From the NCBI GenBank assembly GCA_001797495.1, contig MGPS01000070.1, positions 15,879-79,878 on the forward strand: a stretch of DNA of 64,000 nt, given 5' to 3'. Position 1 is the stretch's first letter. The number at the start of each line of letters is the position of its first letter. The notes beneath the pieces were generated by a model, which searched no databases, was not told the origin of the DNA, and was given only the letters and a program-made list of their open reading frames with translations. The translations under genes and the position numbers were made by a program. The DNA comes from Deltaproteobacteria bacterium GWC2_42_11. Lineage in GTDB: Bacteria > Desulfobacterota > GWC2-55-46 > UBA9637 > GWC2-42-11. Positions 24,835-54,011 of the stretch are shown here, piece by piece.

Positions 24835-25018
24835 CCGTAAAATAGCGATTAAAAACCTCGCTATTTTACAAACCTGCGATTTGCCTGCCATACTTCGTTA
24901 TCGGACAATTTTTACTCCTCACCGTATCGGTGAACATACGGCTCGTCGTAAAAATTGTCCGCTGCCTCGTCTGGCAGGCAACTTGCAAGTTTCCCCAAAA
25001 ATCAAAGTCTATTTTTGG
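24835..25018. repeat. 184-nt structured dispersed element (family R1), copy 1
   Basis: More than 90% identical to 53828-54011. It contains several perfect hairpins (aaaatagcga/tcgctatttt; ggacaatttttac/gtaaaaattgtcc; gcctgcca/tggcaggc; cccaaaaat/atttttggg). Confidence 0.75.
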
Positions 25019-25142
25019 GCAATGGATAATGGTCTACGCTTGCAATAAATTTATCCTGTAATAAATCCTGTAATAAATTTATCCTTGACAACTTGAGTAG
25101 AATTGTATTATGAATTAACACACAATTTAATATAGATATATG

Positions 25143-25259
25143 CTTATTCAGAGTGGTGGAGGGACTGGCCCTGTGAAACCACAGCAACCGGCCTGTTGCA
25201 AACGGGCGGCAGGTGCTAACTCCAGCAAGGTTTGTGATTAAAAAGCCTTGAAAGATAAG
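25143..25259 (+). promoter_or_regulatory. SAM-I (S-box) riboswitch
   Basis: P1 pairs CUUAUUCAGAG with CUUGAAAGAUAAG. Conserved cores GGUGGAGGGACUGGCCC, GUGAAACC, CAGCAACC and GGUGCUAACUCCAGCA are present. Confidence 0.85.
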
Positions 25260-25274
25260 ATTAGGTAATAAAAG

Positions 25275-25307
25275 CCTCTTCTTGATTTCAAGAAGGGGTT
25301 TTTTTTT
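25275..25307 (+). terminator. Riboswitch expression-platform terminator
   Basis: gcctcttcttga-tttc-aagaagggg hairpin followed by a T9 run. Confidence 0.7.
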
Positions 25308-25341
25308 GCAAATCATCAAAAGAAACAATAAGGAGCAGGAT

Positions 25342-26595
25342 ATGAGTTATGTAAAAGGGCTTAAATGCAGGGAATGCGGGAAGGAGTATCCGAAAGAACC
25401 CTTGCATGTATGCGAGTACTGCTTTGGTCCCCTTGAGGTTAATTATGATTATGAGAAGATCAAAAGGGCAGTAAGCAGGGATATAATATCAAAACGACAG
25501 CCGAATATGTGGAGGTACAGAGAACTCCTGCCGATAGACGGTGAGCCGGCAGTAGGTTTTGATGTAGGTTATACCCCTCTGATAAGGGCAAAAAACCTTG
25601 CGAAGGCTCTCGGTGTAAAGGAGTTATATCTGAAAAACGATGCGGTAAATTATCCGACATTATCCTTTAAAGACAGGGTTGTTGCTGTAGCAATATCAAA
25701 GGCATTGGAATTCGATTTTAAGGTTGTTGCATGTGCGTCTACAGGTAACCTTGCAAATTCTGTTGCTGCAAATGCTGCTGCCTGCGGTATGGAAAGTTAT
25801 GTGTTCATCCCTTATGACCTTGAGCAGACAAAGATTTTAGGCACGCTTGTTTACGGCACAAACCTTGTTGCAATAAAGGGTAACTATGACGAAGTAAACA
25901 GGCTGTGCAGCGAGATAGCAGGCAAGTACGGCTGGGCATTCGTAAATATAAATATAAGACCTTATTATGCAGAGGGTTCAAAGGCATTCGGCTATGAGAT
26001 TGCAGAGCAGATGGGCTGGAAACTCCCAAAGCATATTGTTGTGCCAATGGCTGGAGGTTCCCTTATCACAAAGATATGGAAGGCATTCAAGGAATTCCAC
26101 AAACTTGGACTTATTGATAATCTTGGTACAAAGGTCTATGGTGCACAGGCAACAGGGTGTGCCCCGATTACCACAGCAGTGAAGGAAGGTGCAGAACTTA
26201 TAAAGCCTGTAAAACCGAATACAATTGCAAAATCCCTTGCCATAGGAAATCCGGCAGACGGCTTTTATGCTGCAAGGGTGATGAGGGAGAGCGGCGGTTG
26301 GGGAGAGGATGTGTCAGATGAGGAAATTATTGAGTCAATCAGACTTCTTGCTGAGACAGAAGGTATCTTTACTGAGACAGCAGGCGGCGTAACACTTGGG
26401 GTTACTAGAAAACTCATTGAGCAGGGAAGGATACCAAGGGATGAATCAATAGTTGTATCAATTACAGGCAACGGACTCAAGACACAGGAGGCACTTGCAG
26501 GACGGCTAACTGTTTCTATGACAATTGATGCAAAACTTTCTGATTTTGATGAACTACTGAAAAAGCAGAATAAGGTTTATGATGCGAAAGACTAA
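25342..26595 (+). CDS. Threonine synthase family PLP enzyme with N-terminal Zn ribbon; candidate O-phosphohomoserine-dependent homocysteine synthase (MetM-like)
   Basis: SFKDR PLP-lysine motif and the ThrC fold pattern are present. Start is at MSYVKGLKCRECG behind an AAGGAG RBS. The gene sits directly behind the SAM riboswitch and upstream of sulfur-carrier genes. Confidence 0.6.
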   Translation: MSYVKGLKCRECGKEYPKEPLHVCEYCFGPLEVNYDYEKIKRAVSRDIISKRQPNMWRYRELLPIDGEPAVGFDVGYTPLIRAKNLAKALGVKELYLKNDAVNYPTLSFKDRVVAVAISKALEFDFKVVACASTGNLANSVAANAAACGMESYVFIPYDLEQTKILGTLVYGTNLVAIKGNYDEVNRLCSEIAGKYGWAFVNINIRPYYAEGSKAFGYEIAEQMGWKLPKHIVVPMAGGSLITKIWKAFKEFHKLGLIDNLGTKVYGAQATGCAPITTAVKEGAELIKPVKPNTIAKSLAIGNPADGFYAARVMRESGGWGEDVSDEEIIESIRLLAETEGIFTETAGGVTLGVTRKLIEQGRIPRDESIVVSITGNGLKTQEALAGRLTVSMTIDAKLSDFDELLKKQNKVYDAKD

Positions 26596-26677
26596 CCAAT
26601 TTTGCAGGCACGGTTTCAACCGTGCTTTATTTGCACGAATAAATTCGTGCCTACATTTTTGAGGAAGGAGATAAAAT

Positions 26678-27637
26678 ATGAGCATAACAGACCATTTTAT
26701 AGAAGACAAGGTAACCCGAATTCCTGTCAAGAAAGAAGGACAGGATGTTAAGGTAGATTTTAATGAACTCAAATCCGGCGGTTTTATCAAGCAGAGGCAG
26801 AAGGATTTATTTACAGTAAGGCTCCGCTGCCCCGGAGGAAGGCTTACCACAAAGAAACTGATAGAACTTGCAAGGATTGCTGATAAATACAGCAAAAAGG
26901 GTGTTGTGCATTTGAGTTTCAGGCAGTCCCTTGAGATTCTGTATGTTGACTACAGAGACTTTGACGCATTGGTTGCTGACCTGAGAAATGTTGGGCATAA
27001 GGTTGCATCATGCGGCCCAAGGGTCAGGGTTCCGATTGCGTGCGGCGGCTGTGAATACAATCCGAATGGTCTTACGGATACACAAAAGATGGCTGAGATG
27101 GTTGATGAAAAATTCTTCGGTACATCAACCTATCATAAGTTTAAAATGTCGTTTTCAGGATGCCCTATTGACTGTGCCAGGACAAGGGAGGCTGATTTGG
27201 GGTTTCAGGGTGTTGTTGAGCCGGCATGGGATGAGGATACATGCACAGGATGCACAATATGTTCAAGGGCTTGCAAAGAAGGTGCGATTGTTTCACATCC
27301 TGAAACAGGCAAGCCCATATACGACCCTGCAAAGTGCATATACTGCGGAGACTGCATAAGGGCATGTCCTACAGAATCATGGAAGGCAGAAAGATACGGG
27401 CATTTTGTAAGGGTCGGTGGTAAGCACGGCAGACACCCGCGGGAGGCAAATGATGCTGCGGTATTTATCCCTGATGAAAAAGTTTCAAATGTAATAGAAA
27501 AGACGCTTGAGTGGTATAAGATAAACGGCAAAAAGGGAGAGAGGATAGGAACAACCATTGACAGAATAGGATTAAAAAGTTATATAGAGTTTATGAAAAA
27601 TACATTCAGTGATGCAACAATAATTACCGGAGTATAA
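26678..27637 (+). CDS. Small sulfite/nitrite reductase-like hemoprotein with a C-terminal 2x[4Fe-4S] ferredoxin domain
   Basis: Siroheme-[4Fe-4S] Cys motifs (CGGC...SGCPIDCA) are followed by CTGCTICSRAC and CIYCGDCIRACP. Confidence 0.6.
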   Translation: MSITDHFIEDKVTRIPVKKEGQDVKVDFNELKSGGFIKQRQKDLFTVRLRCPGGRLTTKKLIELARIADKYSKKGVVHLSFRQSLEILYVDYRDFDALVADLRNVGHKVASCGPRVRVPIACGGCEYNPNGLTDTQKMAEMVDEKFFGTSTYHKFKMSFSGCPIDCARTREADLGFQGVVEPAWDEDTCTGCTICSRACKEGAIVSHPETGKPIYDPAKCIYCGDCIRACPTESWKAERYGHFVRVGGKHGRHPREANDAAVFIPDEKVSNVIEKTLEWYKINGKKGERIGTTIDRIGLKSYIEFMKNTFSDATIITGV

Positions 27638-27638
27638 A

Positions 27639-27872
27639 ATGGATATAAAGATTGACAAATCCCTTGATTTAAGAAATGTCTTATGCCCAATAAATTTTGT
27701 TAAAACAAAACTTGCATTGGAAACAATGGAAAAGGGTCAGGTGCTTGAGGTTATTATAGATGACGGCGAACCTATTCAGAATGTCCCGAAAAGCGTTAAG
27801 GAAGAGGGGCATAAGATTGTTGAGGTAAAAAAGGAAGACAATCATTTTAGATTGAAGATAGAAAGAAGATAA
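27639..27872 (+). CDS. TusA-like sulfurtransferase
   Basis: LDLRNVLCPINFVKTKLAL matches the TusA/SirA LDxxGLxCPxP motif, with the second Pro replaced by Asn. Confidence 0.6.
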   Translation: MDIKIDKSLDLRNVLCPINFVKTKLALETMEKGQVLEVIIDDGEPIQNVPKSVKEEGHKIVEVKKEDNHFRLKIERR

Positions 27873-27880
27873 AAAACAGA

Positions 27881-27967
27881 TTAAAGACTGAAGACCCGAG
27901 ACTTCAGACACAAGACTCAAGACCACAGATTTAAGACTCAAAACTTTAGTCTATAGTCTTAAGTCTG
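27881..27967. repeat. TAGACT palindromic repeat element (family R3), copy B
   Basis: agactgaagac...aaactttagtctatagtcttaagtctg. Shares agtctatagtct and agac(t/c)-type units with 5187-5300 and 40112-40187. Confidence 0.6.
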
Positions 27968-27986
27968 CATTTAAACGGAGGTTAAG

Positions 27987-28268
27987 ATGGCAATAAAGGT
28001 AAGGATTCCAACACCACTCAGAAAACTTACAAATGGTAAGGATGAGGTAATAGGGGAAGGTAAGAATGTAAAGGAACTTATAAATAACATTGAGACACAG
28101 TATCCGGGATTAAAGGAAAGGATATGCGAGGAGGATGGGAAAATAAGGCGGTTTGTGAATATCTATGTAAATGACGAGGATATAAGATTTAAAAACAGCA
28201 TAGATACAGAACTGAAAGATAGTGATGAGGTTTCAATTATACCGGCAATAGCAGGGGGTAAGTTTTGA
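27987..28268 (+). CDS. MoaD/ThiS-family sulfur carrier protein (CysO/MetO-like)
   Basis: A 93-aa beta-grasp protein ending in the diglycine AIAGGKF is adjacent to E1-like and JAMM genes. Confidence 0.6.
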   Translation: MAIKVRIPTPLRKLTNGKDEVIGEGKNVKELINNIETQYPGLKERICEEDGKIRRFVNIYVNDEDIRFKNSIDTELKDSDEVSIIPAIAGGKF

Positions 28269-28501
28269 AGAAGAGGTTTTACCTTACATACCCAAAGGAA
28301 CTGATAAAAGAGCCGCTGATATATCAGGTAGGTAAACTCTACAATGTTATAACAAATATAAGGCAGGCAACTGTTTCAGATAATATTGGTCTTGTTGCCA
28401 TTGAACTTGACGGAGAGTCTGGAGATATAGAGAAGGCGCTAAACTATTTTGCTGAAAAGGGTGTTAAGGTAGAGCCTATTGAACTGGATGTGGTAGAGTA
28501 G
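28265..28501 (+). CDS. NIL-domain protein
   Basis: The pattern LIYQVGKLYNVITNIRQATV...GLVAIELDG...ALNYFAEKGVKVE resembles the MetN C-terminal NIL domain. Confidence 0.45.
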   Translation: MKKRFYLTYPKELIKEPLIYQVGKLYNVITNIRQATVSDNIGLVAIELDGESGDIEKALNYFAEKGVKVEPIELDVVE

Positions 28502-28623
28502 GTTGAAACAGTTTAGACCGTTCAAACCGTTTAAGTAATTATTATCAGGGTAAATTCGGGATAAGAGTTTGCCCTTTTTGTTTAAGAAGATTCTTTACCA
28601 TTCTTGTAAGGAAAGGTTATAAT

Positions 28624-29562
28624 ATGAGCATACAGCAAAAAATAATCTGGGGTTGCAAAAATCCGAAGGCTTCTGTTCTTGAACTTGTTGGGAATACGCC
28701 TCTTGTCAGGATTAACAGGATTACAGAGGGTTTGAGCAAGGGTGTTCAGGTCTATGCAAAACTTGAATCATATAACCCCGGCGGCTCTGTAAAGGACAGG
28801 GCAGCATTTGGTATGATAAAGGATGCAGAAGATGCAGGCAGACTCACAAAAGATAAGATTATACTTGATTCAACATCAGGGAATACAGGTATTGCTTATG
28901 CATGGATTGGCACTGTTAAGGGTTATTATGTTGAACTTGTTGTGCCTAAAAATGTGAGTGAAGAAAGGAAAAAGATTTTAAAGGCATTTGGTGCAAAGAC
29001 AATCTTTTCAAACCCGATGGAAGGCTCTGACGGTGCCATAAGGCTTGCATGGAAACTTTATGTTGAAAACCCGGATAAATACTGCAAACTAGACCAGTAC
29101 AATAATCCATCCAATCCTCAGGCACACTATGAGACAACAGGTCCTGAGATTATAGAGCAGACAGACGGCAGGGTTACGCACTTTGTTGCAGGGATAGGCA
29201 CAGGCGGAACAATAATGGGTACAGGCAGAAGGCTAAAGGAATTTAACCGTGCAATACAGGTAATAGCAGTTGAACCTGCAACAGCGCTTCATGGTCTTGA
29301 AGGTTTGAAACATATGCCGTCATCAATTGTTCCAGGCATATACCATGAGGGAGAACTTGACAGAAAAATATCAGCGCCAACAGAAGAATCCTATGGAATG
29401 GCAAAGAGACTGGCAAGGGAGGAAGGGCTTTTTGTGGGGCAGTCATCAGGCGCTGCGATGTGGGGGGCGCTTCAGGTTGCAAGGGAACTTGAGGAAGGCG
29501 TGGTTGTTGTTATATTTCCTGATGGGGGGGACAGGTATTTGTCCACAGCATTGTGGGACTAA
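28624..29562 (+). CDS. cysM: Cysteine synthase (CysM/CysK family, PLP-dependent)
   Basis: SVKDRAA lysine motif, TSGNTGIA and GIGTGGT loops are present. Confidence 0.8.
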   Translation: MSIQQKIIWGCKNPKASVLELVGNTPLVRINRITEGLSKGVQVYAKLESYNPGGSVKDRAAFGMIKDAEDAGRLTKDKIILDSTSGNTGIAYAWIGTVKGYYVELVVPKNVSEERKKILKAFGAKTIFSNPMEGSDGAIRLAWKLYVENPDKYCKLDQYNNPSNPQAHYETTGPEIIEQTDGRVTHFVAGIGTGGTIMGTGRRLKEFNRAIQVIAVEPATALHGLEGLKHMPSSIVPGIYHEGELDRKISAPTEESYGMAKRLAREEGLFVGQSSGAAMWGALQVARELEEGVVVVIFPDGGDRYLSTALWD

Positions 29563-29587
29563 GACAACATTCTGCGAATGTTGAATT

Positions 29588-29687
29588 GTAAATTGAAGAT
29601 TGGAAGTTGGAAATTTTAAAATGGAATAAAAAGACAATTTGCAATTTAAATTTTACAATTTTCATTTTACAATTAGAGCGAAGCGAC
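29588..29687 (+). repeat. 105-bp duplicated leader element, copy 1 (upstream of mec)
   Basis: Near-identical to 30083-30197. It contains tandem gaagattg/gaaaattg octamers, then ttgcaatttaaattttacaattttcattttacaattagagcgaagcgac ending at the start codon. Confidence 0.7.
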
Positions 29688-29688
29688 C

Positions 29689-30099
29689 ATGCTTTATCTA
29701 TCTAAAGACATATATAACGAGATTATCAGCCATGCTGAGAAATCATACCCTTATGAAGGATGCGGTGTTCTTGTAGGCAGGGATAAGAGGGTTGTGAAGA
29801 TTTGTCCTGTTGAGAACATAAACAAAGACAGGGCAAATGACAGGTATGAGATAGACCCAAAGGATTTGCTCAGGGTTGAGAAAGGGGTGTCCGAAAAAGG
29901 GCTGAATGTCCTTGGGTTTTTTCATTCACATCCTGACCATCCTGATATGCCGTCTGAGTTTGACAGACAAAGGGCATGGCAATTTTATTCGTATATGATT
30001 GTATCTGTGCATAATGGAAAATCTGTTTCAGTAAAATCATGGACATTTGAAGATGAAAATGAACCATTCAGAGAGGAGGAGGTAAAGATTGAAGATTGA
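29689..30099 (+). CDS. mec: JAMM/MPN+ metalloprotease (Mec-like sulfur-carrier peptidase)
   Basis: EGCG...HSHPDHPDMPSEFD JAMM motif. Confidence 0.8.
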   Translation: MLYLSKDIYNEIISHAEKSYPYEGCGVLVGRDKRVVKICPVENINKDRANDRYEIDPKDLLRVEKGVSEKGLNVLGFFHSHPDHPDMPSEFDRQRAWQFYSYMIVSVHNGKSVSVKSWTFEDENEPFREEEVKIED

Positions 30100-30197
30100 A
30101 AATTGAAAATTGGAAATTGGAAATTTTAAAATGGAATAAAAAGACAATTTGCAATTTAAATTTTGCAATTTTCATTTTACAATTAGAGCGAAGCGAC
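30083..30197 (+). repeat. 105-bp duplicated leader element, copy 2 (upstream of E1-like gene)
   Basis: See copy 1. The 5' part overlaps the last codons of mec. Confidence 0.7.
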
Positions 30198-31019
30198 ATG
30201 AATTTCACAGAAGAGCAAATAGAGAGATATTCAAGGCATATAATCCTGCCTGAGGTCGGCGGCAAAGGACAGGCAAAGTTATTAACTGCAAAGGTCTTTG
30301 TGCTTGGTGCAGGCGGGCTTGGATCACCTGCACTTTATTACCTTGCTGCAGCAGGTGTAGGCACAATCGGCATAGCAGATGCTGATTGTGTTGATTTATC
30401 TAACCTTCAGAGGCAGATAATCCATTCTACATCAAAAATAGGGCTGCCCAAAGTGGAGTCAGCAAAAAGGACTATTGAAGACTTAAACCCTGATGTAAAG
30501 GTTATTGCATACAACGAAAGGCTCAATATTGGCAACATAACACAGATAATAAGGGATTATGATGTAATTCTTGACGGCAGTGATAATTTCCCAACAAGAT
30601 TTCTGATGAACGATGCCTGCTTTTTTGAAAAAAAGACACTTGTTTCAGGGAGCATGTTCAGGTTTGATGGTCAGGTTACAATATTCCAGCCGCATGAGGG
30701 TAAGCCGTGCTACAGGTGTCTTTACCCTGAGCCCCCGCCAAAAGGGCTTGTACCCAGTTGTCAGGAAGCAGGCGTGCTCGGTGCACTGGCAGGCGTGATA
30801 GGTGTTATACAGGCAGTTGAGGCGATAAAACAGGTTTTAAAGATAGGCGATGAACTTGCAGGATACTTACTTATATTTGATGCACTTGCAATGACATTCA
30901 GAAAGGTTAAGGTCAGGAGAGACCCGCAGTGCAGCCTTTGCGGTGATAATCCGACAATAAAGGAACTGATTATGTATGAAGAGACGTGTGAGATAAGGGA
31001 AAAGAGGTGTGAAAAATAG
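30198..31019 (+). CDS. moeB: ThiF/MoeB-family E1-like sulfur-carrier adenylyltransferase
   Basis: GAGGLGS nucleotide-binding loop and CxxC...CxxC Zn motif are present. Start is taken at MNFTEEQIERYSRH; the track ORF starts inside the upstream repeat. Confidence 0.8.
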   Translation: MNFTEEQIERYSRHIILPEVGGKGQAKLLTAKVFVLGAGGLGSPALYYLAAAGVGTIGIADADCVDLSNLQRQIIHSTSKIGLPKVESAKRTIEDLNPDVKVIAYNERLNIGNITQIIRDYDVILDGSDNFPTRFLMNDACFFEKKTLVSGSMFRFDGQVTIFQPHEGKPCYRCLYPEPPPKGLVPSCQEAGVLGALAGVIGVIQAVEAIKQVLKIGDELAGYLLIFDALAMTFRKVKVRRDPQCSLCGDNPTIKELIMYEETCEIREKRCEK

Positions 31020-31048
31020 ATGGAAATCACGCATTATGGTATTTCTAT

Positions 31049-32263
31049 ATGAATAAGTATAAAACACTGCATAATCCTGCGTACCTCAAGATAGACCTTA
31101 TGCTTAACGGCATAAAGGCTGATAACGAGACTATCCAAAGACTCGGTTTAGACTTAAGATACGGTTATACAGGTGTTACAGGGGGACTGGATATTTTACT
31201 GCCTCATAATACATGGGTTAATGCATCGTTCCTTGAAGAGTTTGCAAAGTCCTCTAAATATGAACTTGTCTTAAGGGATAAAAAGACATTTATAAAGGCA
31301 GGAGATGAATCTGTTAAGGTTGATATTATGCCAAAGCCTGAGTTTTATAAACTGAGCACAGCAACAGGCATCCCTCTTTCAAAGATAGGGGCAATGCACG
31401 GCGGTTATGTGGCAATAACACCTGATACAAGGTGCGAGTTCTTTAACATGAATATAGAATGCAGATACTGTGCCGGGAATTTTAATTCCGGAGGCAGCGG
31501 CAGGGTCTATACAGTTGAAGAGGTTCTTGAGACTGTTGATGCTGCAAATAAGGAAGGCAAGGCAGAAATTGTTTATCTCTCAATCGGTTTTTCAGAGACA
31601 CCTGACGGAGGCATAGAATTTTTAAAACCTTATATAAAGGCGATAAAAAAGCACTTCAACACACTTGTTGCTGTAGAGGCGCTTCCGCCAAAGGAAAACC
31701 ATTTTATAGATGAGACTTATGCAGTAGGCGCTGATTCTGTTCTCTACAACATGGAGATATTTGATGAAAGGCTGTTTAAAGAGATATGTCCAGGAAGGGA
31801 TAGACTTATCGGAAGGGAAAGATACATAGATGCGCTTAAATATGCTGCGAAGGTATTTCCTAACGGCACAGTTGCAACACACCTGATTGTAGGACTTGAA
31901 CCCGCAGAGTCAACAATAAAAGGGATTGACTTCTTTACAGGTATAAGGGTTGTGCCTATACTTCCTATATACAGACCATCTGTCGGGGCTAATCTCCTCA
32001 ATTATAAAGTGCCTTCGCTGGATGATGTGCTGCCTGTTTACAGAGACCTGTATCATGCTGTAAAGAAGAATAAAATAAATATAAATTGGGTTAGGGATAT
32101 AAGTGTAATAACAACCCCTATTGAGGCAAGGTTTTTTGCAAAGACAAAGTTTAATAAGACTCTGATGGAAAGATTTTACAAAACAAAGTTAGGCGTTAAG
32201 ACTGCGTGGGGACTTTCAACATTACGGAGGAAACTGCGGGTTAGAGAAGGCGGGGAAGGATAA
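31049..32263 (+). CDS. Conserved hypothetical protein with a CX8CX2C motif (possible non-canonical radical-SAM/TIM-barrel enzyme)
   Basis: The Cys triad TRCEFFNMNIECRYCAG is followed by glycine-rich SGGSGR. No confident family assignment from sequence alone. Confidence 0.3.
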   Translation: MNKYKTLHNPAYLKIDLMLNGIKADNETIQRLGLDLRYGYTGVTGGLDILLPHNTWVNASFLEEFAKSSKYELVLRDKKTFIKAGDESVKVDIMPKPEFYKLSTATGIPLSKIGAMHGGYVAITPDTRCEFFNMNIECRYCAGNFNSGGSGRVYTVEEVLETVDAANKEGKAEIVYLSIGFSETPDGGIEFLKPYIKAIKKHFNTLVAVEALPPKENHFIDETYAVGADSVLYNMEIFDERLFKEICPGRDRLIGRERYIDALKYAAKVFPNGTVATHLIVGLEPAESTIKGIDFFTGIRVVPILPIYRPSVGANLLNYKVPSLDDVLPVYRDLYHAVKKNKININWVRDISVITTPIEARFFAKTKFNKTLMERFYKTKLGVKTAWGLSTLRRKLRVREGGEG

Positions 32264-32265
32264 TA

Positions 32266-36640: not shown

Positions 36641-36775
36641 TTCACGCTGAAGAATGTCCATCTGCGGCGTTGTTGCTGCAGCTTCTGCGCTCAACATACT
36701 ACAAAGTATGCCTCGCTTGAAGCCTTGCTCCGCCTTGCATCTGTGCCATTCTTGAGCATGAACTTGTTGTGAAGT
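36638..36775 (+). repeat. Dispersed intergenic repeat family R2, shorter copy
   Basis: agttcacgctga...ctgcggcgttgttgctgcagcttctgcgctcaacatactacaaagtatgcctcgcttgaagccttgctccgccttgca. It begins at the cysH stop codon. Confidence 0.65.
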
Positions 36776-38975: not shown

Positions 38976-39140
38976 AATAGTTAACGTTGAAAATACCCCG
39001 GCCCATTGCTTTGCAATGGGTGCCCCGTGCGTTGTCGCTGCGGCTTCTGCGCTCAACATACTGCAAAAGTATGCCCCCCGACAGTTTCAATCGGGGGTTT
39101 GCTCCGCCTTGCAGATGGGCAATTTTTGAGCGTCAACTAC
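38976..39140 (+). repeat. Dispersed intergenic repeat family R2, full-length copy
   Basis: aatagttaacgttgaaaatacccc...cccattgctttgcaatgggtgccccgtgcgttgtcgctgcggcttctgcgctcaacatactgcaaaagtatgcc...ttgctccgccttgcagatgggcaatttttgagcgtcaac. Confidence 0.7.
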
Positions 39141-39174: not shown

Positions 39175-40131
39175 ATGTCTTCTTATCCTTTAAGTGTAAT
39201 GCACAACTTCGGCGGTCTGGATGAGAAGGCATCCTCATTCAAAAAGGCAAAGTTTGTTGTCCTGCCTGTTCCGTATGATATGACAGCATCTTATCAGAGC
39301 GGGACAAGAAAAGGTCCGTATGCAATCATTGATGCGTCAACCCATATGGAATTATATAATGAGGAACTGGACATAGAGGCATATAAGGTCGGGATACACA
39401 CAATGCCTTATCTGGAGCCAACCTCAAAAGGTCCTAAGGAGATGGTGGATATTGTTTATGAGGCATCCAGCTATATAGTGAACTTAGATAAAATTCCGGT
39501 TATGCTCGGCGGTGAGCACAGTATAACCCTGGGGCTTGTCAGAGCGCTTAAAAAAAAATATCCGAATATGTCTGTTCTTCAACTGGATGCACATGCAGAC
39601 ATGAGGGATAAATATCAGGAAAGCCCGTATAACCATGCGTGTATTGCAAGGAGAATATCAGAGATGTGTCCGATTGTTCAGGTTGGCATAAGGAGTTTAA
39701 GTGTTGAAGAGGCAGAGTTCTTAAAAAAGGGGTTGGAACACAGAACACAGAAGTCAGAAAAAACGCATCACGCATCACACATCACGCATCACAGTATCCA
39801 TACCTATTTTGCAAAGGATATTATAAGAGGCATCCCTGTAGAGGATATATGCAGTAATCTGACGAATGAAGTTTTTATTACCATTGACCTTGATGTGTTT
39901 GACCCTTCAATTATGCCTGCAACAGGAACCCCTGAACCAGGAGGGTTGATGTGGTATGAAGTGACGGGATTATTGAGGAACATTGCTGCTAAAAAAGAGA
40001 TAATCGGTTTTGATGTGGTTGAGTTGTGCCCGCTGGCAGGTAATTTATCTCCGGATTTCCTTGCTGCAAAACTTGTTTATAAGATGATGGGATATATAGT
40101 AAAAGACAAAAAAGCAGACTATAGACTTTAA
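39175..40131 (+). CDS. speB: Agmatinase / arginase-family ureohydrolase
   Basis: Arginase-fold Mn-ligand motifs are present (GGEHSIT, DAHADM, DLDVFDPS). It carries a His-rich insertion encoded by a nucleotide repeat. Confidence 0.8.
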   Translation: MSSYPLSVMHNFGGLDEKASSFKKAKFVVLPVPYDMTASYQSGTRKGPYAIIDASTHMELYNEELDIEAYKVGIHTMPYLEPTSKGPKEMVDIVYEASSYIVNLDKIPVMLGGEHSITLGLVRALKKKYPNMSVLQLDAHADMRDKYQESPYNHACIARRISEMCPIVQVGIRSLSVEEAEFLKKGLEHRTQKSEKTHHASHITHHSIHTYFAKDIIRGIPVEDICSNLTNEVFITIDLDVFDPSIMPATGTPEPGGLMWYEVTGLLRNIAAKKEIIGFDVVELCPLAGNLSPDFLAAKLVYKMMGYIVKDKKADYRL

Positions 40132-40187
40132 AGTAGACCATAGACTAAAGACTAAAAAGTCTAAAGTCTATAGTCTAAAGTCTAAAC
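40112..40187. repeat. TAGACT palindromic repeat element (family R3), copy C
   Basis: gcagactatagactttaaagtagaccatagactaaagactaaaaagtctaaagtctatagtctaaagtctaaac. It supplies the last codons and stop of speB. Confidence 0.65.
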
Positions 40188-44904: not shown

Positions 44905-45421
44905 GCCAATCCCTGACAAGCCGTATATATGTCCTGATGCGGACATAACCATCCTTCCCATGTCCCGCAATGATATTGATGAAATTCTAGAAATAGAAAA
45001 TGTGTCTTTCCCTGGACCGTGGTCAATGTCCATTTTTGAAAAAGAACTCAAAAACCCCTTTTCTTTTCCGTTTGTGGCACGATTTGATAAGACTGAAACC
45101 AAGACCATTGCCGGATATATAATAGTCTGGCTTGTCGCAGAAGAGGCGCATATATTAAACCTTGCTGTCCATCCTGATTTCAGGAGAAAGGGGATAGCCC
45201 GATTACTGCTGGAATTCATGCTGGACTTTCTTGCCGGAAGGTCTGCAAGGGTTGTGTATCTGGAGGTGAGGAGGTCAAATATTTCAGCACAAAGACTTTA
45301 CATGGGTTTTGGTTTCAGCGAGATAGGAGTCAGGAAGGAATATTATTCTGACAATAAGGAAGATGCTATAGTTATGGGGCTTGAGATGGCTTGCAAAAGC
45401 AGGGCAGCAAAGGTCGTATGA
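44894..45421 (+). CDS. RimI-like GNAT acetyltransferase
   Basis: RimI-like pattern (IENVSFPGPWS...ILNLAVHPDFRRKGIARLLL). Confidence 0.6.
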   Translation: MKNKPIPDKPYICPDADITILPMSRNDIDEILEIENVSFPGPWSMSIFEKELKNPFSFPFVARFDKTETKTIAGYIIVWLVAEEAHILNLAVHPDFRRKGIARLLLEFMLDFLAGRSARVVYLEVRRSNISAQRLYMGFGFSEIGVRKEYYSDNKEDAIVMGLEMACKSRAAKVV

Positions 45422-47231: not shown

Positions 47232-47345
47232 CGCTGACATGCGGCTTTTTCGCTCAACATTTCCATTGCAAAAGAAGCCCGAAGGGTTTGGATGTTAATC
47301 TTTTGCACCATGTTAGCCGCCGTTGCAGGCATCCATTAAAATAGA
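47229..47345 (+). repeat. Degenerate copy of repeat family R2
   Basis: agttgacgctgacatgcggctttttcgctcaacat... aligns with the R2 5' half. It begins at the pyrD stop codon. Confidence 0.45.
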
Positions 47346-47361
47346 ACCGTTCTATTTTTCT
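47337..47361 (+). terminator. Rho-independent terminator after pyrD
   Basis: aaaatagaa-ccg-ttctatttt hairpin followed by ttctc. Confidence 0.5.
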
Positions 47362-47429
47362 CAATCCCATTTCCCCTTTTTCTTTTTGCGAAATATTGAA
47401 ACAATGTCAAGAAAAATTTTATTATCCGC

Positions 47430-47996
47430 TCAATTCAACTCGTCATCTTTCCAGTACTTGGTTCCTTTAACCGTAGCCTGAAGCGCCAGCCCGCTTTTCG
47501 TTAACTGATAAATGGTTATGCCATCTATCAAGGCTTCGCCTCCCACGGCTGCGCCTTTGTCGCCGGCCTTAGCCGCTGCATCGGCATGCCCCCCGAATTC
47601 CCAACCGCTGTTGATGAACTTTGTCAGGGTTGTCCGGTCATGGAAAATAAATACAGCGCGAAAATCTTTAACGCCAAGCCCTAACCCGATACCGACCTCT
47701 CCCATTTTCATGAAAACAGGCCTGCCGGTTTTGTTGTCGTTAACAACCCCATAGCCGCCGCCGAAGCTGGCGAAAATTATATTGATGTTGACGTTGCTGA
47801 AAACTGCATAACCCGGCGCCGCTGCAATCTCGGCTCTTGCCTGAGGGTGAACTTTATAAAGCTCCGACAGGACTTCGTTTCTCATGGAGAGAATAGACTG
47901 ACGTTTGTCTTGAGTGGTTTTACCGCCGGTTGTGGCACAACCACTCAAAATGAAGATCATTACCATGCCGCACAATACAATTTTCACTTGTTCCAT
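47430..47996 (-). CDS. Lipoprotein with SYLF/Ysc84-like (DUF500) domain
   Basis: Lipobox LSGC is followed by the GGGYGVV...GIGLGLGVKD pattern. Confidence 0.45.
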   Translation of the reverse strand: MEQVKIVLCGMVMIFILSGCATTGGKTTQDKRQSILSMRNEVLSELYKVHPQARAEIAAAPGYAVFSNVNINIIFASFGGGYGVVNDNKTGRPVFMKMGEVGIGLGLGVKDFRAVFIFHDRTTLTKFINSGWEFGGHADAAAKAGDKGAAVGGEALIDGITIYQLTKSGLALQATVKGTKYWKDDELN

Positions 47997-48119
47997 AATA
48001 TCTCCAGACCATTTGATTATACTCTTTCACCTTATATCAGACGTCATACTAAAATACAACAACGAATTGCCTTGTCACCGAACAATTAAAAGTGCACTAG
48101 TTTAACGATCAAAAGTGCA

Positions 48120-48332
48120 CTATAGTGTCTTCTCGGTTTTTCTATCAACCAACAAATCAGGGAGTTGAGGTCTGGCATGTGCCTGCACAAAGTCTGTGGT
48201 TATCCTTAATTCTCTGGAGAGTATAATCTTCTTAAAATACTTAGACACAATAAAACCTATGGAGAGGGTAAGGACAACGATAAAGAAAAAACTGAGGATA
48301 GAAAACTTATATAGGGGATTGGTTCTTAACAT
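48120..48332 (-). CDS. Small membrane-anchored hypothetical protein
   Basis: One predicted TM helix. No homology recognised. Confidence 0.2.
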   Translation of the reverse strand: MLRTNPLYKFSILSFFFIVVLTLSIGFIVSKYFKKIILSRELRITTDFVQAHARPQLPDLLVDRKTEKTL

Positions 48333-48340
48333 TTAAGATA

Positions 48341-49714
48341 TTACCCTGCCCCGCTTATATCCATTTTGTGAAGGAGCAAACTAGGTGCGCCGATATTCCC
48401 GAAGAATCTTATATCGTTTCCAGTTTTGATTATCCTTGAGAACAGGTCAAGCAGGTTTCCTGCAATTGCCATGCCCCTTACAGGACAGGAGACCGTGCCG
48501 TTTTCTATATAAAATCCTGCTGCACCAATGGAAAAATCCCCTGATATTGTATTTACCGTATGAACACCAAGAAGTCCTGTAATAAAAACCCCTTTATTCG
48601 CCTCTTTCATAAGGCTATCCAGTTCAGTATCCCCGTTTTTTATATACATATTTGATATACTTATGCCAGGGACAGACTTGAAACCTGACCTTGAACTGTT
48701 TCCTGTAGATTCTACACCCTCCCTTTTTGCCCAGTATGTGTCATAGAGATAATTTTCAAGAACGCCGTTTGTTATAAGAGAGGTCTTTTGTTTTGGTATG
48801 CCCTCGCTGTCAAAAAGGGATGAACTCCAGCCTCTATGCATAATGCCGTTATCTAAAATTGTTATGCAGTCTGAAAATATCTTTTTACCTTTTTTATCCT
48901 TCAGCATGGATTTCCCCTTATGGATGTTATCTGCAAGGAAAGATGGTGCAATGACCTCAAGGAATTCTACTGCTACAGAGTTTTCAAGCACAACAGGGCA
49001 TTTAATGCTTTTTATCTCCCTTGCACCGAGCATAGAGACCGCCCTTTTTGCAGCGCCGATTCCAATCTTTTGTGCATCAATGTCATTTACAAAATGGGAA
49101 AAGTCCATTTCCCAGCCCATCTGGGAATCATTATTCTCTTCTGCTACTGCCATGATACTGCCTGATGCAAATGTCTTGTTATCTGTCAGGTTTATGCCTT
49201 TTGAATTTAGTATTGAAGATGAATAAGTTGTTTCGCTGTAAACAGCATTTCTAACCTGTCTGACCCTTTTGTCAAATGACCTTGCAGCATCTTCAAGCAG
49301 GAGAGACTTTTCTATCTTTTTTGCCTCCGGTGTGTCTTTGATTGTTTTGTCAAAAAGTCCGAGTTCTTTGGATTTTATATCTTCTGCTAAAGGGAAGGAA
49401 TAAAACTCATCTGCTGTAACAGCACTTCCTGCTGATAAGGCATTATCTATCATATTGGAAAGCGCATTATCTGATAGGTCAGAAGAGAATGAAAATCCGA
49501 GTCTTTTGTCTTTCAACACCCTGACACCAATGCCCTTGCTGCAGGAGACCTTCATGGATTCAACAGTTCCATCCTTTGCCTCTATGCTTATACCGTCCTG
49601 AGATGAATAGAATATCTCCCATTCATCTATCTCCTGTTTGCGTTTAAGCATCCTGACAAGATTTTCTAATACCCCTGATTTCTCATTTCTCATTTCTGCT
49701 CCCTGTTTTTTCAT
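48341..49714 (-). CDS. pmbA: TldD/PmbA-family metalloprotease
   Basis: PmbA_TldD pattern throughout (GIGVRVL...GRSSIG-like C-terminus). Confidence 0.75.
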   Translation of the reverse strand: MKKQGAEMRNEKSGVLENLVRMLKRKQEIDEWEIFYSSQDGISIEAKDGTVESMKVSCSKGIGVRVLKDKRLGFSFSSDLSDNALSNMIDNALSAGSAVTADEFYSFPLAEDIKSKELGLFDKTIKDTPEAKKIEKSLLLEDAARSFDKRVRQVRNAVYSETTYSSSILNSKGINLTDNKTFASGSIMAVAEENNDSQMGWEMDFSHFVNDIDAQKIGIGAAKRAVSMLGAREIKSIKCPVVLENSVAVEFLEVIAPSFLADNIHKGKSMLKDKKGKKIFSDCITILDNGIMHRGWSSSLFDSEGIPKQKTSLITNGVLENYLYDTYWAKREGVESTGNSSRSGFKSVPGISISNMYIKNGDTELDSLMKEANKGVFITGLLGVHTVNTISGDFSIGAAGFYIENGTVSCPVRGMAIAGNLLDLFSRIIKTGNDIRFFGNIGAPSLLLHKMDISGAG

Positions 49715-50160
49715 AGTTCAATCATTACCGCAGTCTCATCGCAATTCGGGAATTTAAAGCACTTTATACATTCTCCCCATATCTTATGCGGTAGTGTCAT
49801 CTTGTCAATGGATATAAATCCGAGTTTTTCAAAGAATACAGGTTTATATGTAAGTGCGAACACCCTTTTAATACCGAGTGCCTTTGCTTCATCAAGACAC
49901 GCGTTTACAAGGACACTGCCTATGCCTTTCCCTGATGACCCTTCTTTAACTGTAAGCGACCTTATCTCTGCCATGTCCTCCCAGATAATGTGTAAAGCAC
50001 ATGAACCGATGATAGCACTATCTTCCTCATATACATAAAAATCCCGCAGGTTGTCATACATATCTGTCAGGGGTCTATGCAGCATCTCGCCCTTGTTTGC
50101 AAAGGCCTCTATAAGTTTATATATCTCTTTTATGTCGCTTATGTTTGCCCTGCGTATCAT
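49711..50160 (-). CDS. GNAT-family N-acetyltransferase
   Basis: RSLTVKEGSSGKGIGSVLV acetyl-CoA motif. Confidence 0.6.
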   Translation of the reverse strand: MIRRANISDIKEIYKLIEAFANKGEMLHRPLTDMYDNLRDFYVYEEDSAIIGSCALHIIWEDMAEIRSLTVKEGSSGKGIGSVLVNACLDEAKALGIKRVFALTYKPVFFEKLGFISIDKMTLPHKIWGECIKCFKFPNCDETAVMIEL

Positions 50161-51464
50161 CAGTTCAGTACCTCTATTATTAGTGGTTTTGTTTCAACTT
50201 TATCCTTGCAAAACGAGAATGCATTTTCAAGCATTTTTATTGTTGGGTCCCTTTTTGAAATATTGTTGAAATAAATAACAGCCAATTCTTCATTTATTCT
50301 GACCTGGTCACCAACTTTTTTGTTCAGTATTATACCTGCTGCATGGTCAATTCTGTCATCTACCTTTATCCTCCCTGCACCGAGATGCATTGCAGCAATG
50401 CCAACCCGCTCTGCATCTATTCCTGATATGAAACCTTCTCCTCTGGCAGCAAAGGTCTCAGAATATCTTGCCGAACTAAAAAGGGACGGGTTATCAATTA
50501 CATCTGTAATCCCACCCTGACCTGCAACCATTTCTTTAAACTTCTTAAGACCGCTTCTGCTTTTGATTGCCTTCCTGATTTTCTGTCGTCCCAGAGCCAT
50601 GGAATCAGCCTTCCCTGCCAATAAAAGCATCCATGCACTTGTTTCAACGGTCAATTCTGCAACATCAGCGGGTCCTTTACCGTTCAGTACATCAATTGCT
50701 TCTATTACTTCAAGGCTGTTGCCGACTGCCATACCCAGCGGCTGGTTCATATCAGTCAATACAGCAATGACCTTTTTTCCCATCCCTTTGCCTATCTCTA
50801 TCATGGTCTTTGCAAGTTTCCTTGCATCATCCTGATTTTTCATAAATGCACCACTCCCGACCTTTATGTCAAGCACAAGGGCATCAATCCCTTCTGCAAG
50901 TTTCTTGCTCATTATGCTGCTTGTAATAAAGGGTATGCTTTCAACTGTCGCAGTTATATCCCTGATGGCGTATAATCTCCTGTCAGCAGGTGCAATCTCG
51001 CCTGTCTGTCCTATTATTGAGATACCTGTCTTTTCTACCTGTCTTGTAAATTCTTCAAGGGTGAGGTCTGTTCTGAATCCGGGTATGGATTCAAGTTTAT
51101 CAATCGTCCCGCCAGTGTGTCCAAGCCCCCTCCCTGCAATCATGGGTATATAAACGCCGCATGATGCAGCAAGCGGTGCAGCAGCCAATGTAATCTTGTC
51201 GCCTACTCCGCCTGTGGAATGTTTATCTATTTTCTTGTCTTTGATGGAATTAAGGTCAAGCACCCTGCCAGAATACAGCATCTCTCTGGTCAGTGCAGCA
51301 GTCTCTTCTTCTGTCATCCCTTGGAAATATACTGCCATGAGGAGGCTTGATATCTGGCAGTCAGGAATGCTGCCGGAGGTTACACCTTTAATAAAGAACG
51401 ATATCTCTTCACCGCTGAGTTCCACGCCGTCCCTTTTTTTCTTTATAATATCATAAACTCTCAC
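50160..51464 (-). CDS. pdp: Pyrimidine-nucleoside (thymidine) phosphorylase
   Basis: The N-terminal MRVYDIIKKKRDG...MTEEETAALT and KHSTGGVGDK phosphate-binding motifs are present. Confidence 0.85.
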   Translation of the reverse strand: MRVYDIIKKKRDGVELSGEEISFFIKGVTSGSIPDCQISSLLMAVYFQGMTEEETAALTREMLYSGRVLDLNSIKDKKIDKHSTGGVGDKITLAAAPLAASCGVYIPMIAGRGLGHTGGTIDKLESIPGFRTDLTLEEFTRQVEKTGISIIGQTGEIAPADRRLYAIRDITATVESIPFITSSIMSKKLAEGIDALVLDIKVGSGAFMKNQDDARKLAKTMIEIGKGMGKKVIAVLTDMNQPLGMAVGNSLEVIEAIDVLNGKGPADVAELTVETSAWMLLLAGKADSMALGRQKIRKAIKSRSGLKKFKEMVAGQGGITDVIDNPSLFSSARYSETFAARGEGFISGIDAERVGIAAMHLGAGRIKVDDRIDHAAGIILNKKVGDQVRINEELAVIYFNNISKRDPTIKMLENAFSFCKDKVETKPLIIEVLN

Positions 51465-51466
51465 CG

Positions 51467-51859
51467 TTACTTTCTGCCCTCGAGTATCCTTTCGGTTTGT
51501 TCTATTATTTCTGTTGCAGTTGCCCTGTCTTTTAAAATGATATTTTCTTGGGCATCCACGCTTATCTTTGTTGTTTTTGTCGTAATCCGTTCAAGGTCTA
51601 TATAAATTTTTAAATTTGGTGTTTTTGCTATAATCTTGATTCCATTTTCTATGTCTTTTTTCCCAACCTCTACAACCCCCATATTTTTTAAGGTGGTGTA
51701 TGTTGCAGCCTCTACATGGCTAAACGGATAACTCGTAGTTTTGTATGCAATATTTGTTACTGTATACACAATTGCACCGCTTGCGCCTGCTATTACAATG
51801 GCTGCACAGCCCGAGGAGGTAAATAAGATCAATACCAAATTAAGTGCTGTTTTCTTCAT
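51467..51859 (-). CDS. Hypothetical lipoprotein
   Basis: A signal peptide carries the lipobox SSGC. Confidence 0.35.
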   Translation of the reverse strand: MKKTALNLVLILFTSSGCAAIVIAGASGAIVYTVTNIAYKTTSYPFSHVEAATYTTLKNMGVVEVGKKDIENGIKIIAKTPNLKIYIDLERITTKTTKISVDAQENIILKDRATATEIIEQTERILEGRK

Positions 51860-52012
51860 TTTTTGTTCCTTTTAATATATTTTTGACCAGTATTCTGGAT
51901 TTCCTGCGGTTGTATGCAGTTTTTGTTCTATGTATGGCAGATGGTTTGGGCACAGGTTTTCTTACCTTTTCTAAAATATCTCTTGTTTTAATGAACATCT
52001 TCTTATTCTTTT

Positions 52013-53188
52013 TCACAGGAGTTGTTTTAAAAAACTTTCGCCGTTCTGCATCTCTTGAAGCCCGAATACATTTGCAATGGTCTGCCCTACATCCGCAAAT
52101 GTTTCCCTTGTCCCCATGTCTATCCCTCCCTTTAATCCTTTACCGTAAACCAGAAGCGGGACATACTCCCTTGAATGGTCGGTTGAGGGTGTTGTTGGGT
52201 CGCAGCCGTGGTCTGCTGTAATTATAAGCATATCGCTGTCTTTAAACAATGCCGTTATACCGGGTAATCTTGCATCAAATTCCATCAGCGATTTTGCATA
52301 ACCCTCTGCATCGTTCCTGTGCCCGTAAAGCATATCAAAATCAACAAGGTTTGTGAATAATAGTCCCCTGTCTGTATGTTTAATCGCATCGATGGTTTTA
52401 TCAATGCCGTCCATATTGTCCCTTATGTGGATTTCTCCTGTGAGTCCTCTATGTCCATATATATCGCCAATTTTACCGATACCGATAACAGGCAATCCAA
52501 TTGCTTTGAGTTTGTCAAGGACTGTCTCGCCTGTTGGGGCGATTGAAAAATCCTTTCTCTGTGCAGTCCTTTTGAAAGAGCCGGCACTGCCTTCAAATGG
52601 TCTTGCTATCACCCTGCAGACGCCGTAATCATCGAGTATCCTGCGGGTTATTTTGCAGACCTCGTAAAGTCTTTCACCCGGTATTACAGCCTCATGTGCG
52701 GCAATCTGGAATACGCTATCTGCAGATGTATAAACAATTAGTTTTTTAGTTTTAATATGTTCTTCACCAAACTTTTGGATGATTTCTGTCCCTGATGCAG
52801 CAATGTTGCCGATGTAGTCCATCCCTGTTTCTGTCTTAAACCTTTTCATTATCTCTTCAGAAAAACCATGCGGGTATGTAGGGAATGGCTTATCAAGGAT
52901 GATACCTGCAATCTCCCAATGACCTGTTGCAGTATCCTTGCCTTTTGATGCCGCCATCATCCTGCCGTAGGATGCGAGAGGGGATGATGTTCTCTTTAAC
53001 CCTTCAACACCCTTTATATTCCCTATGCCGAGCGACTCAAGATTTGGGATGCTGAACCACCTAATGGTCTTTACTATGTTACCCAGGGTATTGCTGCCTT
53101 TATCACCGTAATATTCAGCATCAGGGAGTTCCCCGATACCAAGACTGTCAAGCACAATGATGATTATCCTGTTCAGGTTATTATACAT
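52013..53188 (-). CDS. deoB: Phosphopentomutase
   Basis: IIVLDSLGIGELPDA, GNHE-like metal ligands and the DHGCDP motif are present. Start is taken at MYNNLNR. Confidence 0.85.
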   Translation of the reverse strand: MYNNLNRIIIIVLDSLGIGELPDAEYYGDKGSNTLGNIVKTIRWFSIPNLESLGIGNIKGVEGLKRTSSPLASYGRMMAASKGKDTATGHWEIAGIILDKPFPTYPHGFSEEIMKRFKTETGMDYIGNIAASGTEIIQKFGEEHIKTKKLIVYTSADSVFQIAAHEAVIPGERLYEVCKITRRILDDYGVCRVIARPFEGSAGSFKRTAQRKDFSIAPTGETVLDKLKAIGLPVIGIGKIGDIYGHRGLTGEIHIRDNMDGIDKTIDAIKHTDRGLLFTNLVDFDMLYGHRNDAEGYAKSLMEFDARLPGITALFKDSDMLIITADHGCDPTTPSTDHSREYVPLLVYGKGLKGGIDMGTRETFADVGQTIANVFGLQEMQNGESFLKQLL

Positions 53189-53292
53189 GTAAGACCTTTG
53201 TCTTAATGTTCTGGAGGGTATATCCAATATATACTGCAACAATAAAAAGAAAGGAAAGGCAGGCAATGTATTCCTGCCTTTATATAGCAGGG

Positions 53293-53622
53293 TTATAGAA
53301 CCTTGTCTATCAAAGCCTTTATCTGTGTTTTAGGCACAGCACCCACTACCTGGTCAACGACCTGTCCGTTTTTGAAGAGTATGAGTGTCGGAATGCCCCT
53401 GACGCCGTATTTGCCCGGTGTTGCAGGGTTTTCATCAACATTCATTTTTGTTATCTTAACCTTCCCTGCATAGGCATCAGCCATCTCCTCTACAACCGGG
53501 GCTATTGCCCTGCACGGTGCGCACCATGTTGCCCAGAAATCAACAAGTGCAGGTATGGGGGACTTTAGTACCTCTGTATCAAAATTACTGTCGGTAACAT
53601 GAATAACATTTTCTGACATCAT
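53293..53622 (-). CDS. trxA: Thioredoxin
   Basis: WCAPCR active site (WATWCAPCRAIAP) in a 109-aa protein. Confidence 0.9.
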   Translation of the reverse strand: MMSENVIHVTDSNFDTEVLKSPIPALVDFWATWCAPCRAIAPVVEEMADAYAGKVKITKMNVDENPATPGKYGVRGIPTLILFKNGQVVDQVVGAVPKTQIKALIDKVL

Positions 53623-53697
53623 TTTCTCCTTTCGAAAGTGTTTTGTTTAAATTTATGGTTTAAGTGGTTGTTTATCAATAATTATTGTTGTATTAAC

Positions 53698-53774
53698 TGG
53701 GGTGAGCGAGGGGATTTGAACCCCCAGCCCTCGGAGCCACAGTCCGATGCTCTAACCATTGAGCTACGCCCACC
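53698..53774 (-). tRNA. tRNA-His (GUG) with encoded G-1 and CCA
   Basis: The reverse complement folds as a cloverleaf: acceptor GGUGGGCG..CGCUCACC, anticodon loop CUGUGGC, T-arm GGGGGUUCAAAUCCCC, 3' CCA. Confidence 0.9.
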
Positions 53775-53827
53775 GTTTTTTAATTTATTATCATAGTGTG
53801 CATTATACTGTCAACATTTTAAAGTCC

Positions 53828-54011
53828 CCGTAAAATAGCGATTAAAAACCTCGCTATTTTACAAACCTGCGATTTGGCTGCCATACTTCGTTATCGGCCA
53901 ATTTTTGTTCCTCACCGTATCGGTGAACATACGGCTCGTCTCAAAGATTGTCCGCTGCCTCGTCTGGCAGCCAACTTGCAGGTTTCCCCAAAAATCAATG
54001 TCTATTTTTGG
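53828..54011. repeat. 184-nt structured dispersed element (family R1), copy 2
   Basis: See copy 1 at 24835-25018. Confidence 0.75.

Follow-up and report, generated by a model that had tools for sequence, protein, structure and literature searches.

The window analyzed here, a 64,000-nt stretch of contig MGPS01000070.1 from Deltaproteobacteria bacterium GWC2_42_11, carries two intergenic copies of a 185-nt structured element. We regard this element as very probably a non-autonomous DNA transposon of the MITE (miniature inverted-repeat transposable element) type, with dozens of copies dispersed across a group of uncultivated groundwater bacteria that resemble sulfate reducers. Copy A lies between nadE, which runs on the minus strand with its ATG at about 24786, and the promoter and S-adenosylmethionine (SAM) riboswitch of a ThrC-like gene, and it begins 49 nt upstream of the nadE start codon. 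The nadE product is an NAD+ synthase that is 100% identical to a protein of Deltaproteobacteria bacterium GWC2_42_11. The SAM riboswitch (25141-25261, Rfam) precedes a 437-aa open reading frame (ORF; 25282-26595), which was read as ThrC-like without a family search. Copy B lies between the promoter of tRNA-His (53698-53773, minus strand) and that of a 127-aa hypothetical ORF, for which no homologue was detected outside the species. The two copies are both on the plus strand and share 175 of 185 positions (94.6%), and no third copy was found in the window, even with a hidden Markov model (HMM) of the family. The element has no coding capacity, the only ORFs that cross the window copies being spurious ones of at most 58 aa.

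Each window copy folds into three domains: a 5′ hairpin, a nested central hairpin of about 120 nt and a 3′ hairpin (Table 1). The 5′ terminal hairpin consists of the left end and an internal inverted copy of that end, and the 3′ hairpin is built in the same way from the right end. The central palindrome contains the stems GCCTGCCA/TGGCAGGC and GGACAATTTTTAC/GTAAAAATTGTCC and the apical pairing CCGTAT/ATACGG, and it is the variable, modular part of the family, differing in length and modules among the other copies. On the plus strand the two window copies reach minimum free energies of -76.8 and -78.2 kcal/mol, and on the minus strand -90.6 and -80.8 kcal/mol, with z scores from -8.9 to -11.9 and none of 200 shuffled sequences as stable. 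Both strands fold about equally well, which is expected of palindromic DNA. The hairpins arise from the way the element is built, with ends that pair with internal inverted copies and an interior that is one long palindrome. An earlier note on this DNA had given the genomic context of both copies as we find it, and its description of two copies more than 90% identical also stands, although its limits fell one base short at the 3′ end (184 instead of 185 nt). The stems that it named are present as well. However, they form three domains rather than four perfect hairpins, as one long hairpin includes both the GCCTGCCA stem and the 13-bp stem as nested parts, and the latter is perfect in copy A only, being mismatched in copy B.

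Table 1. Coordinates of the two window copies and of their parts (TIR, terminal inverted repeat)
Feature	Position, copy A	Position, copy B	Strand	Basis
Very probable MITE, copy A, 185 nt	24835-25019		+	HMM match over positions 1-185, E 2e-62; limits agree with 116 other insertions
Very probable MITE, copy B, 185 nt		53828-54012	+	Full-length HMM match, E 2.4e-61
Left TIR CCGTAAAATAG	24835-24845	53828-53838	+	First 11 nt of essentially every copy
Right TIR CTATTTTTGGG	25009-25019	54002-54012	+	Final 11 nt in essentially all copies
5′ terminal hairpin, 12-bp stem GTAAAATAGCGA/TCGCTATTTTAC, 9-nt loop	24837-24869	53830-53862	+	Folds; invariant in 25 aligned copies
Central long imperfect palindrome	24870-24992	53863-53985	+	Folds; compensatory changes in 5 base pairs
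3′ terminal hairpin, 9-bp CCCAAAAAT / 8-nt loop / ATTTTTGGG	24994-25019	53987-54012	+	Folds; holds the right end
Direct repeat CAAT	left 24831-24834, right 25020-25023		.	Read from sequence (AACAAT/element/CAATGG); 4 bp against a family norm of 5-6 bp
Degenerate duplication AGTCC/AGTTC		left 53823-53827, right 54013-54017	.	4/5 positions in register (AAAGTCC/element/AGTTCGG)

The element belongs to a dispersed family. A scan of one genome per species with the 5′ hairpin pattern (TAAAATAGCGA N5-12 TCGCTATTTTA) matched more than 107 loci. Among the matches listed, 87 fell in 11 related species represented by metagenome-assembled genomes (MAGs), and the other 20 were simple palindromes in unrelated taxa. 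The 11 species are labelled Deltaproteobacteria or Thermodesulfobacteriota, come mostly from groundwater and, according to their isolate names, have G+C contents of 41-46%; individual MAGs hold at least 26 (JACRML), 14 (MGQA), 13 (JACRNJ) and 10 (MGRL) loci. An iterated nhmmer profile run over the loci with the 5′ pattern returned 100 non-overlapping matches, 68 of them full length. A separate scan of metagenome contigs for the 3′ hairpin gave more than 119 loci, in which the HMM finds 115 matches, 72 at full length. A blastn search against plasmid and phage collections gave no match to the element, and a scan of viral contigs gave a single one, in a 441-kb contig. Rfam 15 returned no match at the gathering score, and only three chance-level hits of 11-17 bits at E values up to 10. 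A literature search with the hairpin sequence retrieved no relevant paper.

Full copies measure 168-424 nt, with a mode of 183-185, and the whole family spans 27-424 nt, with constant ends and a modular interior. Longer copies contain extra or exchanged GC-rich palindromic modules, such as AACACACCCC...GGGGTGTGTT and CACAACCCACCCC...GGGGTGGGTTACG, and in some of them a CATCTTCCACTTGCAATTGCTTC... module follows the 5′ hairpin. Truncated copies and solo hairpin units also occur. Among the longer variants, those at L021:866-1079, L081:3881-4096, L100:1-207 and L033:7339-7572 (L numbers designate the fetched loci) have the GC-rich perfect palindromes AACACACCCCTAAATCCCCTCTCGAGAGGGGATTTAGGGGTGTGTT and CACAACCCACCCCTTTATCCCCTCCAAGGAGGGGAAGGGGTGGGTTACG, which stand in place of the apex of the central hairpin or lengthen it; these palindromes may be a second, very small hairpin module with a mobility or recombination of its own. 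Of 68 copies, at least 54 are located outside any ORF of 120 aa or longer. Their orientation with respect to the flanking genes is random (++ 14, -- 12, -+ 8, +- 5), and the neighbouring genes are different at every copy.

The limits of the element and the DNA that flanks them provide the central evidence for its nature. Similarity among the aligned copies stops at identical bases, CCGTAAAATAG at the start and CTATTTTTGGG at the end, and 9 of 11 positions agree between the left end and the right end's reverse complement (CCCAAAAATAG), so that the two form an imperfect TIR. We collected the flanks of 117 distinct insertions from the window, the 11 related MAG species and the Rifle-type metagenomes. 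Exact direct repeats of 5-7 bp border the element at 79 of them (5 bp in 49, 6 bp in 28 and 7 bp in 2), while permutation of the right flanks predicts 1.07 cases of at least 5 bp and reached a maximum of 5 in 1000 permutations. The repeated sequence is different at every site, with only a mild A/T bias, and it is therefore a target-site duplication (TSD) and not a motif; no conserved motif was found on the 5′ side of the left end among the aligned copies. Even very small members carry such duplications: one of 27 nt (L014, TAAGT/CCGTAAAAAATCAAGTCTATTTTTGGG/TAAGT), one of 29 nt between ACCCAC repeats (L107) and one of 84 nt between TATTA repeats (L073). Since these mini-elements consist of little beyond the two ends, the ends alone suffice for movement.

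Insertion polymorphism agrees with this picture. For each insertion we searched all fetched DNA for the predicted empty site, composed of the two flanks and one copy of the duplication, and recovered one true empty allele. L225 is empty where two other metagenome contigs, L133 (846-1029) and L176 (1872-2055), are filled, the flanks being 98.6% identical, and the alleles align cleanly as AAATTGC-TGATTT-TCCC and AAATTGC-TGATTT-[element]-TGATTT-TCCC. The insertion splits an 83-aa ORF that is intact in L225 (12515-12766), downstream of a 62-aa possible antitoxin ORF; by its sequence pattern, the 83-aa product looks like a ParE/RelE-like toxin. Furthermore, in the orthologous neighbourhoods L085 (JACRML) and L096 (MGRL) the element has inserted to either side of a shared small gene, and the two loci become collinear when it is removed in silico. 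A site filled in L074 corresponds to a 20-bp intergenic spacer in L042. Strain polymorphism was not found at copy B, which is filled in all six assemblies of this species. At the nadE loci of four sister species, the neighbours are other genes and the element is absent, although two of these genomes carry many copies elsewhere. Thus, the insertions are species-specific and not conserved features of nadE or tRNA-His: the two window copies are insertions into promoter-containing intergenic DNA of housekeeping genes.

The earlier note had hesitated between a small RNA and a MITE, and argued for a structured non-coding RNA (ncRNA) family on the grounds that neither TIRs nor TSDs were evident. The second of its two options is the one that our data favour, and the preference that it argued is contradicted by the ends, the duplications and the filled and empty alleles. 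The ends match as described above and the window copies are flanked by CAAT/CAAT and AGTCC/AGTTC, features that were understandably missed from two copies alone. The note had also named TSDs and presence/absence polymorphism, together with a lack of transcription, as observations that would speak against an ncRNA family. The two DNA-level features were found, the former at a frequency far above that of the permuted flanks, the latter as filled and empty alleles with nearly identical flanks and as the independent insertions in L085 and L096.

Bacterial MITEs have been defined by TIRs, flanking direct repeats, the lack of a transposase, a size below about 400 bp and very stable stem-loops (PMC3184786). 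Our element shows a corresponding size, no transposase gene, TIRs, TSDs of variable sequence, dispersed copies, filled and empty sites and a stable stem-loop. Non-autonomous cut-and-paste (or copy-in) movement is the best-supported account of these properties. A transposase encoded elsewhere and acting in trans would recognize both ends (5′-CCGTAAAATAG ... CTATTTTTGGG-3′), cut the target with a stagger of 5 or 6 nt and insert the element, and repair of the stagger would leave a direct repeat of 5-6 bp on each side. We infer that the mobilizing enzyme acts in trans and, on account of the duplications, that it is of the DDE type. In the IS1380 family of insertion sequences (ISs), duplications are 4-5 bp long and the ends begin with CC, and in the IS1634 family they are 5-6 bp long and the ends begin with C. 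The element likewise begins with CC at both ends, so that either family might be considered, as a lead only, as the source of the transposase.

Several observations weigh against this account. The TIR is short and imperfect, and the duplications at the two window copies are degenerate, with 4 bp at copy A and 4 of 5 positions at copy B. A cognate autonomous IS with matching ends usually accompanies MITEs, although their definition does not demand one. The approximately 1.7 Mb of fetched loci yielded no autonomous element that combines these ends with a transposase gene, and a Pfam search of the 30 window ORFs of at least 280 aa revealed no transposase, but only non-transposase domains or no match. 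In a structure alignment of 25 copies, in which paired columns were tested by 500 column shuffles and by controls with slid partners, five pairs of the central hairpin covary (CG/UA, UA/GC, CG/GC, AU/CG and GC/AU; 37 cells), a level that none of the 500 shuffles reached. Finally, copies in JACQEJ, MGRL, JACRNI and MGQA share 96-98% identity with those of the window, whereas the NadE proteins of these species are only 74-80% identical.

Other searches of the fetched loci for an autonomous partner were likewise negative. Paired end motifs 0.4-6 kb apart with matching flanks yielded nothing. The long repeats common to the loci proved to be only an RHS/YD-repeat gene. A degenerate and a full copy in L052 enclose only two ORFs, one of 84 aa that is hydrophobic and one of 194 aa (no family search). 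A candidate in L020, obtained by a TSD-guided pairing of orphan ends, holds five non-overlapping ORFs of 102-305 aa and ordinary appearance, with no obvious transposase (no family search) and is probably due to chance.

The covariation and the similarity between species go beyond what transposition driven by the ends alone requires, and may reflect either an extra constraint or horizontal spread. With slid partners the pairing drops to 36-46%, and the terminal hairpins never vary, so that they are uninformative on structure. The mean identity of copies is 91.5% within a MAG and 90.5% between MAGs, and the nearest neighbour is in another species for 18 of 25 copies, with no clustering by genome. 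This similarity across species is most simply explained by the recent spread of an active element among co-resident populations. As for the covariation, template switching can produce compensatory changes in a quasi-palindrome even where no selection acts. The mismatches do not point to one strand either: in the 25-copy alignment the variable cells contain 4 G.U and 18 A.C, while the bias is reversed when the mismatches of 68 copies are counted without an alignment (267 G.T and 176 A.C), and this strand asymmetry may be noise. In the same alignment (A5), the G.U pairs at columns 44/163 and 76/143 are invariant on the plus strand.

It is conceivable, though in our judgement unlikely, that the central hairpin of about 120 nt is itself under selection, either as a structured RNA used by the host or by the element, or as an obligatory single-stranded DNA (ssDNA) intermediate of transposition. 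This would be because of the compensatory changes, together with the 96-98% identity of copies between species whose proteins are about 75% identical. As an RNA, the hairpin could possibly serve as a regulatory small RNA (sRNA) or as an RNA cofactor of the element's own transposase. If so, the element would be more than a passive deletion derivative of an IS.

A constraint on one hairpin differs from the proposal that the family as a whole consists of sRNA genes of about 185 nt, kept for the function of their RNA and not by the movement of DNA, which we consider very improbable. The very stable fold, the compensatory changes in five stem pairs, a conservation between species that exceeds that of host genes and a weak promoter-like match inside both window copies (TTTACA-18-CATACT, with a TG) would all fit such genes. 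However, RNA genes do not account for TSDs at 79 of 117 copies, for filled and empty alleles, one of them an insertion within a coding sequence, or for genomes that each hold dozens of copies, randomly oriented and at sites unrelated to one another. Nor does an interior that varies while the ends stay constant fit this proposal; both strands fold about equally, the mismatch types give no consistent strand signal, and template switching offers another origin for the covariation. Neither an Rfam family nor a terminator was found for the element: no intrinsic terminator lies within either copy, the one predicted site (25184-25199) being unrelated and outside it, and the 3′ hairpin is followed by CAATGG in copy A and by AGTTCG in copy B. 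A MITE can be co-transcribed and might thus have a secondary role as RNA, but the members of this family are not ncRNA genes that occupy conserved loci. The surroundings of the window copies could instead suggest a cis-regulatory or terminator module of the neighbouring genes (nadE, the SAM-riboswitch gene and tRNA-His), as both copies are in divergent promoter regions and, upstream of nadE, a -35-like TTTACG contributed by the left end of copy A stands 16 nt from a TACAAT (24841-24814, minus strand; 9/12 match). A hybrid promoter for nadE created by this end is possible but speculative. A cis-regulatory or terminator module is extremely unlikely to explain the element, since the four sister species lack it upstream of nadE, the neighbours differ from copy to copy, the orientation is random and no stem is followed by a run of T. 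At copy B, the good promoter matches of tRNA-His (TTGACA-16-GATAAT) and of the 127-aa ORF adjoin the element, and both of these better matches are located outside it.

A different mode of movement is suggested by the hairpins at the ends. The element could be a REP/REPIN-like or IS200/IS605-derived palindrome, mobilized as ssDNA by an HUH/Y1 transposase of the RAYT type that acts on the terminal hairpins. A hairpin at either end with a long central palindrome between them, mostly intergenic sites, the absence of long perfect TIRs and the existence of solo hairpin units would be in keeping with this mechanism. Y1 transposases such as those of IS200/IS605 and RAYT, however, insert without target duplication and beside a fixed sequence of 4-5 nt. 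Our element duplicates 5-6 bp of variable sequence and has no conserved motif before its left end, two findings that contradict the REP/RAYT and IS200/IS605 mechanism. The two terminal hairpins are, moreover, unlike in sequence, and no RAYT-like gene was seen beside the copies, where no systematic search was made. Such an origin therefore appears exceedingly improbable, and we retain the trans-mobilized MITE as our interpretation.

The identification of the element as a mobile repeat has practical consequences. In GCA_003532155.1, another assembly of the same organism, a scaffolding gap (NN) lies inside copy B (DOFD01000075.1; L108:2620-3025), and several ENA contigs (L111-L114) begin or end inside the element. 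The repeat thus explains assembly breaks in these MAGs. Two intergenic hairpin clusters are spared annotation as ncRNA genes, and the HMM, combined with the end signature (CCGTAAAATAG...CTATTTTTGGG plus a 5-6 bp duplication), can be used for masking and for strain tracking in Rifle-type groundwater metagenomes. With this family, a transposon system that is active, or was so recently, is documented for an uncultivated lineage of Thermodesulfobacteriota. Housekeeping genes have received insertions in their promoter regions, and a ParE-like toxin gene is disrupted by at least one. That the copies are not clustered by genome points to the exchange of mobile DNA between co-resident populations.

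The window and the sister MAGs contain further small repeats. A 103-nt A+T-rich direct repeat, 96% identical, occurs at 29585-29687 and 30095-30197, directly upstream of the start codons of consecutive ORFs for a JAMM/Mov34-like protein and ThiF (30096-31019), which follow a PALP (CysM-like) gene. In a sister MAG, a flank of L065 has matches of about 82% to each of the two copies, and the repeat may be another dispersed family or a duplicated leader. A third repeat of approximately 90-120 nt (91-98% identical; 18586-18705 on the minus strand, 36667-36764 and 38990-39138 on the plus strand) is found upstream of an ATP-sulfurylase gene (36806) and an arginase-family gene (39175), as well as inverted between genes for a polysaccharide deacetylase and an S41 peptidase. 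Two 61-nt sequences with AGACYATAGAC-like motifs (5236-5296 and 40116-40176) are 89% identical, and the heptamer CACGCAT forms short runs at 39757, 56882 and 58600. The sister MAGs harbour at least two additional dispersed repeat families of about 70-190 nt beside the MITE, one at L014:6122-6259, L021:4829-4967, L068:533-672 and L018:1-128, the other at L006:3464-3590, L056:1255-1445 and L033:6229-6419, and these genomes are rich in small repeats. Rfam additionally identifies in the window a 6S RNA (9436-9615) and a fluoride riboswitch (14267-14328), the latter before a gene of the Na+/H+-exchanger family (14373-15533).

MITEs as such are an ordinary and well-known class of bacterial elements, with examples such as Correia/NEMIS, RUP, ERIC and Nezha (Delihas 2011, PMC3184786); the family described here is a previously undescribed member. 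It shares with them a small non-coding sequence, TIRs, TSDs, many and mostly intergenic copies, filled and empty sites and stable folds. It differs in that there is no sequence match to the described families, its TIR is only about 11-16 bp long and imperfect, each end is itself a hairpin formed by the end and its internal inverted copy, and no partner IS was found for it. While Correia and RUP duplicate TA, our element duplicates 5 or 6 bp. Another MITE for comparison is Chunjie of Geobacter uraniireducens Rf4, which measures 178-235 bp, with 21-bp TIRs and 9-bp direct repeats (Chen et al. 2008 in PMC3184786). The two have in common a host from the former Deltaproteobacteria, a similar size, an A+T-rich composition, a predicted fold of high stability and some copies that overlap genes. 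However, the TIR of about 11 bp (9/11 matching) and the direct repeats of 5-6 bp distinguish our element from Chunjie, and given these differences in length, the two families probably use different transposases. In its architecture, the element also resembles the BOX and BIME/REP mosaics, which likewise combine constant end modules with internal hairpin modules that are optional or can be interchanged and occur as solo units. REP and BIME sequences, in contrast, have no TSDs and are tied to RAYT tyrosine transposases, whereas the insertions of the present family are marked by clear duplications of their targets.

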